Virus record (IMG/VR): IMGVR_UViG_3300032285_001531
DNA: 64,000 bases
Direction: 5' to 3' (one strand)
DNA from: a virus
Lineage: Duplodnaviria > Caudoviricetes
In this document: piece after piece, positions 22,953 through 24,579 of the stretch
Numbering within the stretch: the first letter of the stretch is position 1
How the letters are laid out: each line of letters starts with the position of its first letter
Position numbers and translations under genes: made by a program
The notes under the pieces: model-generated
Seen by the model: only the letters and a program-made list of their open reading frames with translations
What the model was told of the DNA's origin: nothing
Database searches by the model: none

Positions 22953-23426
22953 ATGATATTCAATCACATTAAGAAACTTAAAGCAGAAGGTAAGAAGATA
23001 GGTATAACATTTTCTACCTTCGACTTGTTACATGCAGGTCATATTGCTATGCTAAGTGAAGCAAAGAATCATTGTGATTATCTTATTGCTGGCTTACAAA
23101 CTGATCCAACAATAGATAGACCTGATACTAAGAATAAACCTGTGCAAAGTATTGTAGAACGACAAATTCAATTGTCAGCATGTCGTTATGTTGATGAAGT
23201 GGTTGTGTATCAAACTGAACAAGACTTAATTGACTTATTATTGATTCTACCAATAGATGTTAGAATACTAGGTGTAGAGTATGAGAACAAAGACTTTACC
23301 GGTAAGAAAGAATGCTGGGATCGTGACATTGAATTAGTATTCAATGGGCGTGATCATAGTTTCAGTTCTAGTAGTCTGCGTAAACGTGTTGCTAATGCAC
23401 AAATAGTTAATAAATTAAACAAATAA
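22953..23426 (+). CDS. Cytidylyltransferase (TagD/RfaE-like)
   Basis: TFSTFDLLHAGH, LIAGLQTD, SSSSLR. Confidence 0.88.
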   Translation: MIFNHIKKLKAEGKKIGITFSTFDLLHAGHIAMLSEAKNHCDYLIAGLQTDPTIDRPDTKNKPVQSIVERQIQLSACRYVDEVVVYQTEQDLIDLLLILPIDVRILGVEYENKDFTGKKECWDRDIELVFNGRDHSFSSSSLRKRVANAQIVNKLNK

Positions 23427-23430
23427 AAAT

Positions 23431-23473
23431 AGCGGTCTAGGCAATCACCCCGCTCTACAAATTCTGCTGCCTA
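23431..23473 (+). ncRNA. Candidate H-type pseudoknot, preQ1-I riboswitch-like, upstream of queD
   Basis: AGCGG 23431-35/CCGCT 23450-54; loop TAGGCA 23438-43 pairs with TGCCTA 23468-73. Confidence 0.45.
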
Positions 23474-23494
23474 TGATAATGTAGGAAAATAGTT

Positions 23495-24025
23495 ATGACA
23501 ATCGTTAGTAAAGACAATGTTTGGGGAATGCCGACTAAACAATACAAATACACTAGTACCAAAGAATACCACGATGCATTTCCATGTGCATATCGTCAAT
23601 GGAGAGCAGACAGCCATTGTAACTTGATTCATGGTTATAGTTTTAGTATGAAGTTTTACTTTGGTACTGACAGTTTAGATGTACGTAATTGGGCTGCTGA
23701 CTATGGTGGATTAAAAGAACTAAAAGGTATACTGGAAGATCAGTTTGACCATACGTTACTTGTAGCACAAGATGATCCAGAGTTAGAAACATTCAAATTA
23801 TTACAAGAAAAGAAACTTGCTAAATTGACAATTCTTCCAAAATTAGGATGTGAAGGTTTAGCCGATATGCTTTACAAGTACGTGAATGGAGTGTATATTT
23901 CTGATATGTGGGGAGAGGGTGAAGCTGAACGTCTTTGGTGTTATCGTGTAGAAGTACGTGAAACTCAAAGTAACATGGCTTTTAGAGAAGGTCATAGACA
24001 TTGGAATGAGGACTTGTTTAAATGA
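23495..24025 (+). CDS. queD: 6-carboxy-tetrahydropterin synthase
   Basis: CNLIHGYS, DQFDHTLL, CEGLA, VEVRET. Confidence 0.88.
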   Translation: MTIVSKDNVWGMPTKQYKYTSTKEYHDAFPCAYRQWRADSHCNLIHGYSFSMKFYFGTDSLDVRNWAADYGGLKELKGILEDQFDHTLLVAQDDPELETFKLLQEKKLAKLTILPKLGCEGLADMLYKYVNGVYISDMWGEGEAERLWCYRVEVRETQSNMAFREGHRHWNEDLFK

Positions 24026-24579
24026 AAACATTAGTTAGTTATGCCGAGGTTGAACTACATTGTTTAACTATAGCAAAACAAATGAGCAAAGACAAATGGA
24101 TACCTGATTATATTGTAGGTATAACACGTGGTGGACTTTTACCTGCTGTCTTGCTAAGTAACTGGTTTGACTGTAAAATGTACACATTAGATGTAAGACT
24201 GCGTGATGGTAAAGGTGATGGATGCGAAAGCAATCTATGGATGCCCGAAGATGCAATCGGGTATGTACCAGAAGATCAACGTGGTGAAAGTGGCACACGA
24301 GTAGATCCGGCACATCGTAAGAATATATTAATCGTTGATGATATTAATGATACTGGTGCTACTATCAATTGGATTATGCAAGATTGGAAGAAAAGTTGTT
24401 TACCTAACAATAGTGCATGGGATACAGTATGGGGAAACAATGTAAAAGTTGCTACACTATTTGATCGTGGACTATCAAGCAATAGTGAAATGCCGCATCA
24501 GTATACAGGTGTATTAGTTACACAAGACAATGATCCGGGTTGGGTTGTATTTCCCTGGGAAAGCTGGTGTGGAGAATAA
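24022..24579 (+). CDS. Type I phosphoribosyltransferase (purine PRT-like)
   Basis: VGITRGG, ILIVDDINDTGAT PRPP loop, WVVFPWE. Confidence 0.9.
   Translation: MKTLVSYAEVELHCLTIAKQMSKDKWIPDYIVGITRGGLLPAVLLSNWFDCKMYTLDVRLRDGKGDGCESNLWMPEDAIGYVPEDQRGESGTRVDPAHRKNILIVDDINDTGATINWIMQDWKKSCLPNNSAWDTVWGNNVKVATLFDRGLSSNSEMPHQYTGVLVTQDNDPGWVVFPWESWCGE

Follow-up and report, generated by a model that had tools for sequence, protein, structure and literature searches.

A conserved and covarying RNA pseudoknot in the leader of queD-like genes of uncultured phages, a candidate translational ON switch

Gene Context of the Leader

The window (the whole 64-kb stretch of phage DNA that was analyzed) contains a gap of 68 bases between the stop codon of a cytidylyltransferase-like gene and the ATG of a queD-like gene, and this gap very probably encodes a small RNA pseudoknot (Table 1). 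The neighboring genes, all located on the plus strand, were GalE-like, FolE, cytidylyltransferase, QueD-like, phosphoribosyltransferase and QueE genes. In 38 related loci, the phosphoribosyltransferase gene was found upstream of the leader, not downstream.

The protein encoded by the queD-like gene matched PHROG 2389 (QueD-like, 5.2e-37), scored 31.8 bits against the NCBIfam QueD model (under the cut-off of 89.25), and gave a weak match (E 6e-4) to the solved CPH4 synthase 7v0f. The gene was the sole recognizable PTPS/QueD-type gene of the phage. Given that this protein was also the only PTPS-family match in five jumbo-phage relatives that were 82–100% complete, it probably supplies the QueD step. 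Two motifs were identified in the window protein, CNLIHGY (residues 42–48) and FPCAYRQW (residues 29–36), and in all of the 194 motif-linked proteins CxxxHGY stood in place of CxxxHGH, the signature of QueD. In QueD, zinc is bound by the two histidines of this signature (PMC10516641). According to the Pfam alignment, the QueD-like protein apparently carries Tyr or Phe at the first of the zinc-binding histidines. The CxxxHGY T-fold subfamily is unstudied, and it likely performs the CPH4-synthase step in these phages.

Parts of the Leader Element in the Window

The original prediction had described a P1 helix (AGCGG/CCGCT) with its loop, a 6-bp pairing between the loop and the tail (TAGGCA/TGCCTA), and a Shine–Dalgarno sequence (SD) about 10 nt farther on, and all of these were confirmed at the coordinates listed in Table 1. 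The pseudoknot ended 10 nt upstream of the SD in the window, and this distance reached about 25 nt in the family. The family core of P2 comprised 4–5 bp adjoining L2. Because L2 of the window (AUCACC) is one base longer than the family norm (UCAUC), the predicted 6-bp register of P2 is right for the window copy, in which U23438 of L1 was also able to close P2. Within L3, A23457, A23459, A23461, U23463, C23464, G23466 and C23467 were invariant in the protein-anchored set of relatives (see below). The hairpin sequestering the SD and P2 were mutually exclusive pairings in the window.

When the region was folded on its own, the minimum free energy (MFE) of positions 23420–23500 was −11.1 kcal/mol, compared with −11.4 ± 2.8 kcal/mol for shuffled sequences (z 0.12), and the fold of positions 23428–23476 gave a z of 0.57 against shuffles. 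The single-sequence fold of the window element is no better than chance and is uninformative. A 19-mer of the L3 region was unique within the window, and the covariance model R1 matched positions 23425–23479 with 63.9 bits (E 6.5e-20), the next match in the window reaching 10.6 bits. By the 19-mer search and the covariance model, no further copy of the motif was found within the 64-kb window.

TABLE 1. Coordinates of the leader element, the overlapping signals and the adjacent genes in the window.
Feature	Sequence (family form)	Position	Strand	Basis or remark
Upstream cytidylyltransferase-like gene		22953–23426	+	Pfam CTP_transf_like 2.9e-12; stop 23424–23426
P1 5′ strand	AGCGG	23431–23435	+	Pairs with 23450–23454; read from the sequence
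P1 loop, 14 nt	TCTAGGCAATCACC	Between 23435 and 23450	+	Read from the sequence
L1 start	UCU (YCU)	23436–23438	+	C invariant, U at least 90% conserved
P2 5′ strand	UAGGCA (DNA TAGGCA)	23438–23443	+	Family core GGCA at 23440–23443
L2	AUCACC (UCAUC)	23444–23449	+	C23449 invariant, immediately 5′ of the P1 3′ strand
P1 3′ strand	CCGCU (DNA CCGCT)	23450–23454	+	Sequence, covariation, RNAalifold
L3	CUACAAAUUCUGC (WUAYAAAYUCUGC)	23455–23467	+	
Weak sigma70-like reading	TCTACA (23454–23459), 17 nt, TAATGT (23477–23482); TG at 23474–23475	23454–23482	+	
P2 3′ strand	UGCCUA (DNA TGCCTA)	23468–23473	+	23470–23473 common to the sequestering hairpin
Predicted SD-sequestering hairpin	CCUAU (23470–23474)/GUAGG (23481–23485), loop GAUAAU	23470–23485	+	MFE folds
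Sequence overlapping the end of the pseudoknot	TATGATAAT	23472–23480	+	
Shine–Dalgarno sequence	AGGA	23483–23486	+	23483–23485 paired in the hairpin
queD-like start codon	ATG	23495	+	
QueD-like T-fold protein, 176 aa, CxxxHGY subtype		23495–24025	+	Pfam PTPS 9.3e-15
Purine-type phosphoribosyltransferase gene		24022–24579	+	Overlaps the queD stop (ATGA-type)

Relatives of the Leader and Their Linkage to queD-Like Genes

The protein-anchored set consisted of the best 80 of about 600 IMG/VR stretches matching the QueD-like protein, at 83–94% identity. The leader was present in 77 of these 80 loci, and two of the remaining three were cut by a contig end. The N-termini of the proteins and the upstream genes varied among the 80 loci, while the leader was retained. 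The identity of 83–94% held from about residue 17 of these QueD-like proteins (L001–L080), the first ~16 residues being unalignable and variable in length.

When a search pattern made of L2 and L3 only was used, in which the variable bases of P1 were unconstrained, 119 further viral stretches were matched. A complementary P1 5′ strand was found 12–26 nt upstream in 117 of the 119, and in 117 a QueD-like ORF followed at a distance of up to about 100 nt; the QueD-like proteins of the pattern-matched loci were 30–100% identical to the window protein. Across 596 Gb of genomes from bacteria and archaea, the same pattern gave 122 matches, of which 10 had any P1 and ~3 were genuine, all of the latter on MAG contigs; the remaining matches were almost all due to chance. 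A blastn search of 50,697 INPHARED records with the window region and a class A leader (see below) gave no match to the leader in cultured phages.

Overall, about 200 IMG/VR phage loci with the same H-type pseudoknot were obtained, and the covariance model found one strong copy per related locus. The QueD-like gene was located directly downstream of the motif in 195 of 197 loci, and the gene upstream encoded a cytidylyltransferase (42 loci), a phosphoribosyltransferase (38 loci) or another product (the rest). The two exceptions, L020 and L291, had one gene inserted between the motif and queD. In L020, the intact leader was followed by a SAM methyltransferase gene and then by queD. In L291 (4825–6302), an ORF of 293 aa with no Pfam match was found between the intact leader and the QueD-like gene, and the original queD start region looked disrupted; this could be a mobile-gene insertion. 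A second, degenerate leader was observed in L208 (2–57; 27.8 bits), ~940 nt ahead of the intact one, with P1 reading ACCAG/CUGGU, UUCGC replacing UCUGC and P2 lost; a class I SAM methyltransferase gene (68–970) lay downstream of this degenerate leader.

Covariation and Conserved Positions

In the family, the parts of the element were arranged in the order P1 (5 bp), L1 (YCU plus 0–6 variable nucleotides), P2 5′ strand, L2 (UCAUC), P1 3′ strand, L3 (WUAYAAAYUCUGC) and P2 3′ strand, with a P2 of 4–7 bp and a P1 loop of 13 to 19 nt. The P1 variants were all complementary: AGCGG/CCGCU, ACCGG/CCGGU, AGAGG/CCUCU and AGUGG/CCACU, and furthermore AUCGG/CCGAU, UGCGG/CCGCA and UCCGG/CCGGA. The P2 variants included GGCA/UGCC, GGCG/CGCC, GGCAU/AUGCC and GACAU/AUGUC, as well as GACUU/AAGUC, GACGC/GUGUC and GGCUU/AAGCC.

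Two alignments were analyzed, namely A1 (54 protein-anchored leaders) and A2 (95 distinct covariance-model hits). The proportion of paired cells in P1 and P2 was 90.6% in A1 (72.9 ± 1.2% in shuffles) and 89.4% in A2 (70.5% in shuffles), and double changes were observed at 8 of the 10 pairs in A1 and at 9 of the 10 in A2. The covariation score was 0.414 in A1 against 0.117 when shuffled, and 0.442 in A2 against 0.139; none of 500 shuffles reached the observed score in either alignment, and with slid registers the score was at most 0.122 (A1) and 0.101 (A2). The covariation among phage queD leaders that had been proposed as a check of the original prediction was thus found for both helices. When the register of P2 was scanned, the helix was 81% paired at register 0, compared with 53 ± 2% for shuffles and 11–73% per position at the other registers, and P1 was recovered exactly and de novo by RNAalifold. 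Because the A2 alignment was fitted to P1 through the model, A1 and the register scan are the cleaner tests.

Mismatches or bulges occurred in about 20% of the P2 cells in A1 and A2, and G–U pairs outnumbered A–C combinations in P2 by ~64 to 27. This excess of G–U over A–C, together with the varying length of the P1 loop and the interleaving of the two helices, points to an RNA transcribed from the plus strand, not to a protein-bound DNA palindrome.

In the protein-anchored set, 13 positions were invariant, and these fell in L1, L2 and L3 and at the P1 top, whereas the stems were variable; C23449 and the G23435–C23450 pair were the same in all 54 of the 54 leaders of A1. L2 and L3 were nearly invariant across the family. 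Invariant loops combined with variable stems are the usual pattern of an aptamer, and the conservation suggests a riboswitch-like anatomy. A pairing of the L3 bases CUGC with the P1 strand GCGG was also considered and rejected, given that UCUGC is fixed while P1 varies, so that there is no covariation between them. Although the single sequence folds no better than chance, the covariation and conservation revealed by comparison with relatives make it almost certain that the pseudoknot is a real feature.

Predicted Expression Platform and Proposed Switch

In the MFE folds, the P2 3′ strand paired with the region of the ribosome-binding site in 162 of 163 distinct platforms, and the SD or the AUG was sequestered in 160 of the 163. 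At least four different solutions for the sequestering helix were found among the relatives, and in each platform type the 5′ arm of the helix was supplied by the P2 3′ strand or by its final bases. The class A platform (CCUAUG/CAUAGG over the SD) takes in the CCUAU/GUAGG helix of the window; other platforms were placed over the start codon (UGCCAUUG/CAAUGGCA and UGUCAUC/GAUGGCA) or adjoined the SD (AUGUCU/AGACAU). The first codons (AUGGCA) of the queD-like ORF join the sequestering helix in class B leaders. The energy of the platform fold changed from −7.9 to −5.5 kcal/mol when the strand was swapped, and to −4.0 kcal/mol when it was shuffled.

In 137 of 152 contexts, an ORF on the same strand ended upstream of P1, at a median distance of 12 nt; the distance from the upstream stop to P1 ranged from −12 to about 200 nt across contexts and was 4 nt in the window. 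No terminator-like site was found at the leader when the window was scanned. Since a same-strand ORF ends just upstream and no terminator was found, we expect the leader to lie within a polycistronic mRNA. The pairing of P2 and that of the sequestering helix exclude each other, so stabilization of the pseudoknot should expose the ribosome-binding site, which corresponds to an ON logic.

We propose that positions 23431–23494 would act as a cis-acting RNA switch in a polycistronic mRNA, immediately 5′ of the queD-like gene. In the absence of the pseudoknot, the P2 3′ strand would form one arm of a hairpin that covers the ribosome-binding site, which in the window is the CCUAU/GUAGG helix across AGGA; formation of the pseudoknot would pull this strand away and turn ON the translation of the queD-like gene. 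Most likely, a small molecule that stacks between the two helices would stabilize the pseudoknot. The invariant C, which would read the ligand, suggests a compound with a guanine-like face, and the candidates, which are not ranked, are guanine or GTP-derived bases, dihydroneopterin triphosphate, CDG and 7-deazaguanine. Dihydroneopterin triphosphate is the substrate of QueD and, being a pterin, presents the 2-amino-4-oxo face as well.

The element combines the features generally expected of a riboswitch, namely a conserved structured element, a consistent gene association and a platform of mutually exclusive pairings. The analysis shows the pseudoknot and its covariation, the exclusive linkage to one gene, the competing helix and the lack of an Rfam counterpart. 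We infer RNA as the functional level, ON as the direction of the response, a metabolite as the trigger, and the chemical type of the ligand. As a whole, a cis-acting, metabolite-stabilized translational ON switch would be the best explanation of the element, and we incline slightly toward it. Translational ON switching taken by itself appears reasonably probable from the modeled pairings, while the triggering of the switch by a metabolite is put forward more tentatively. An ON logic would be unusual for a biosynthetic gene, and it is deduced here purely from predicted pairings.

Possible Switching without a Ligand

The pseudoknot might be real and form a two-state RNA switch that needs no small-molecule ligand, which we consider unlikely. 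Such a switch could serve as a protein operator, bound by the QueD-like protein or by a translational regulator of the phage, as with the leader pseudoknot of T4 gene 32; it could respond to translation of the gene upstream, whose terminating ribosome would melt P1; or it could be a kinetic folding timer. The linkage of the motif to one protein family only would also fit autogenous control by that protein, and an ON logic would be a peculiar way for the product of a pathway to exert feedback. In many loci, the upstream stop lies 4–12 nt from P1, inside the footprint of a terminating ribosome, but the wide range of this distance across contexts argues against strict coupling. Moreover, a ligand-free switch is at odds with the invariant loop bases and the invariant C stacked on an invariant G–C pair, which is the pattern of the preQ1-I ligand pocket, and with the persistence of the motif across QueD-like proteins only 30–40% identical to that of the window.

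Relation to the preQ1-I Riboswitch

According to a 2024 review (PMC11625349), class I preQ1 riboswitches fold into H-type pseudoknots of about 34 nt. Their P1 is topped by a conserved G–C pair that forms the floor of the pocket, and the base directly preceding the 3′ strand of P1 is a specificity cytosine that does not vary (UC in type I, AC in types II and III). The 5′ strand of P1 is followed by U or UU, L3 is rich in A and lies in the P1 minor groove, and P2 includes SD bases. Ligand binding thereby hides the SD (OFF), or else a terminator follows. Types I–III are represented, for example, by B. subtilis queC and by the riboswitches of T. tengcongensis, C. antarcticum and E. coli. Like them, the phage motif is a compact H-type pseudoknot placed ahead of a gene of the 7-deazaguanine pathway, it has a 5-bp P1 with an invariant G–C top, and it is predicted to act on translation. 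The invariant C23449 of the phage motif is found at the position of the specificity cytosine, a match by sequence position and not by role; the base before it is U in most relatives, as in preQ1-I type I, and C in the window. L3 of the phage motif starts A-rich (WUAYAAAY, with three invariant A's) like that of preQ1-I, and then continues with the invariant UCUGC, which is absent from preQ1-I.

Further differences were observed in size and layout. The phage aptamer measures 43–50 nt, against about 34 nt in preQ1-I, and its L1 is longer and variable, with a YCU start in place of U or UU. The first base of L1 was C in 80 leaders, U in 57 and A in 31, with an invariant C as the second base and U as the third; the U of preQ1-I is not conserved. 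P2 of the phage motif is a Watson–Crick helix of 4–7 bp without SD bases, whereas that of preQ1-I holds SD bases, and the predicted logic is ON, in contrast to the OFF logic of the known preQ1 switches. In addition, the phage motif was found almost only in uncultured phages.

When the whole 64 kb was searched with Rfam 15 at the gathering thresholds, no family was matched. The preQ1-I model RF00522 (gathering threshold 39 bits) gave no match at E ≤ 10 on positions 23300–23600 of the window or on positions 2860–3010 of L017, and in three whole related phage records it gave sub-threshold matches (at most 14.9 bits), none of them at the queD leader. For preQ1-II, the sole match was at chance level (15.3 bits, with the threshold at 47) and was driven by the SD/AUG tail, and this candidate was rejected. 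The Infernal search that had been suggested for the original prediction thus turned out negative, no Rfam preQ1 model recognizing the leader, and because RF00522 fails there, membership in preQ1-I is not demonstrated. The preQ1-I-like layout that had been proposed held for the topology, the G–C top of P1, the invariant C and the A-rich start of L3; RF00522 gave no match, and the SD lies outside P2. The proposed variant riboswitch was supported in its conserved and covarying pseudoknot with riboswitch-like anatomy, and the wiring predicted here is ON, not the OFF of preQ1 switches. By analogy, the element is treated as working like a preQ1-I-type aptamer, without demonstrated membership in that class.

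With regard to the pathway, QueC was not matched in two 100%-complete motif-bearing jumbo-phage genomes, and three others gave marginal partial matches. Given the lack of a QueC match in the complete relatives, preQ0 or preQ1 made by the phage is unlikely as the signal.

A divergent but genuine preQ1-I riboswitch, binding preQ1 or preQ0 and repressing queD as in bacteria, is accordingly very improbable. It would account for the H-type topology, the 5-bp P1 with its G–C top, the UC (CC in the window) before the P1 3′ strand, the A-rich start of L3, and the location before a gene of the queuosine-pathway type. However, it would not account for the silence of RF00522 at the leaders of the window, of L017 and of the three phage records, for the variable base directly after P1, or for the extra UCUGC; P2 without SD bases, with a 3′ strand that competes for the sequestering helix, corresponds to ON and not to OFF; and the two complete genomes with no QueC match suggest that these phages probably make neither preQ0 nor preQ1.

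Promoter-Like Sequences in the Leader

The sigma70-like reading of the window (Table 1) agreed with the consensus at 4 of 6 positions for TCTACA and at 3 of 6 for TAATGT, and its predicted start fell after the SD. The promoter scan of the window did not list TCTACA-17-TAATGT, and sigma70-like promoters of this type were not enriched within the window.

The leaders were divided into class A (103 of 168 distinct leaders, about 60%) and classes B (65 of 168). The hairpin loop of class A read TGnTAnnnT, of the extended −10 type, in 96 of 103 leaders; the −10 box was TATAAT in 48 cases and TAAAAT in 33, and its positions 1, 2 and 6 did not change, whereas position 3 did. In most class A leaders, TATACA, TTTACA or TTACAA was located 17 nt upstream of the −10 box, within L3. 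The embedded near-consensus extended −10 promoter of class A, of the form TTTACA/TATACA-17-TGnTATAAT, is exemplified by L026 (2888–2995). The class A arrangement looks like a genuine sigma70-type promoter, judging from these sequences, and may coexist with the switch; such an embedded promoter may lead to dual transcription of queD. Given that this promoter lies inside the platform, its transcripts would lack the pseudoknot. Class B leaders had no TGnTAnnnT in the hairpin loop and retained the pseudoknot.

The element could be a DNA signal, that is, a promoter of the sigma70 or T4-early type (with the −35 box in L3 and the extended −10 in the loop), perhaps together with an operator, the RNA structure being incidental; we regard this as most improbable, a little more so than a genuine preQ1-I riboswitch. 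It would explain TATACA/TTTACA-17-TGnTAnnnT in class A, with a pattern of variation as in real −10 boxes, and the presence of TATGATAAT in the window. Nevertheless, the compensatory changes in two interleaved helices, the variable length of the P1 loop and the invariant UCUGC in the would-be spacer are left unexplained, the 65 leaders that have no such arrangement keep the pseudoknot, and the window copy is weak and badly placed. A promoter cannot for these reasons be the conserved function, and as a sole explanation it fails. The alternative of a DNA promoter or operator, which had accompanied the original prediction, therefore gained a near-consensus promoter in class A but does not explain the covariation. 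Separately, a T4 late-promoter reading of L3 (TATAAAT-like) was rejected as the main function, since class A has TACAAAT and UCUGC would be unexplained; the T4 late-promoter core TATAAATA occurred 4 times in the window against 11.7 ± 3.6 expected, a mild depletion.

Lastly, a chance inverted repeat without function, with which the single-sequence folding energies (equal to those of shuffles) would agree, is refuted by the conservation and covariation and has a negligible probability.

Comparison with Other Regulatory RNAs

The proposed metabolite-stabilized ON switch resembles several known systems in part. The pseudoknot in the mRNA leader of T4 gene 32 is a protein-dependent translational operator that nucleates binding of the gene's own protein and represses translation. 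The phage motif is likewise a pseudoknot in the 5′ leader of an mRNA of a T4-like phage and would govern translation of the gene that follows, but the gene 32 pseudoknot represses, and no sequence similarity to it is expected. Guanidine-III (ykkC-III) and SAM-II/SAM-V riboswitches are small aptamers of the H-type pseudoknot. Like them, the phage motif has two helices within ~40–50 nt, with conserved bases in the loops and an L3 that would run along P1; unlike them, it is set in a different gene context, and none of these families was matched in the Rfam scan. In adenine (add) and other ON-type translational riboswitches, the ligand-stabilized aptamer frees a strand that pairs with the SD or AUG. 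Formation of the phage aptamer is similarly predicted to withdraw the strand pairing with the SD or AUG and so to turn translation ON, but the aptamers of the adenine (add) type are three-way junctions, not pseudoknots, and are associated with bacterial purine salvage or catabolic genes.

Implications for Phage DNA Modification

7-Deazaguanines in phage DNA are a defense against host restriction. To our knowledge, riboswitches are rare in phages, and we know of none for genes that replace the guanine of phage DNA with 7-deazaguanines; a limited literature search found no description of the motif. It is plausible, if somewhat less likely than not, that the element represents a phage-specific riboswitch class, the first for a DNA-hypermodification pathway and the first ON-wired aptamer of preQ1-I shape, sensing a guanine-face compound other than preQ1. 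Examples of such a ligand would be dihydroneopterin triphosphate, guanine released by base exchange, and 7-deazaguanine or CDG. The switch would then time the synthesis of the atypical CxxxHGY QueD-like enzyme during infection.

If validated, an ON-type pseudoknot aptamer would add a riboswitch class and show a rewiring of the smallest known aptamer fold, and it would provide a compact natural ON switch for engineering. It would also reveal the metabolite that these phages monitor to time the modification of their DNA.
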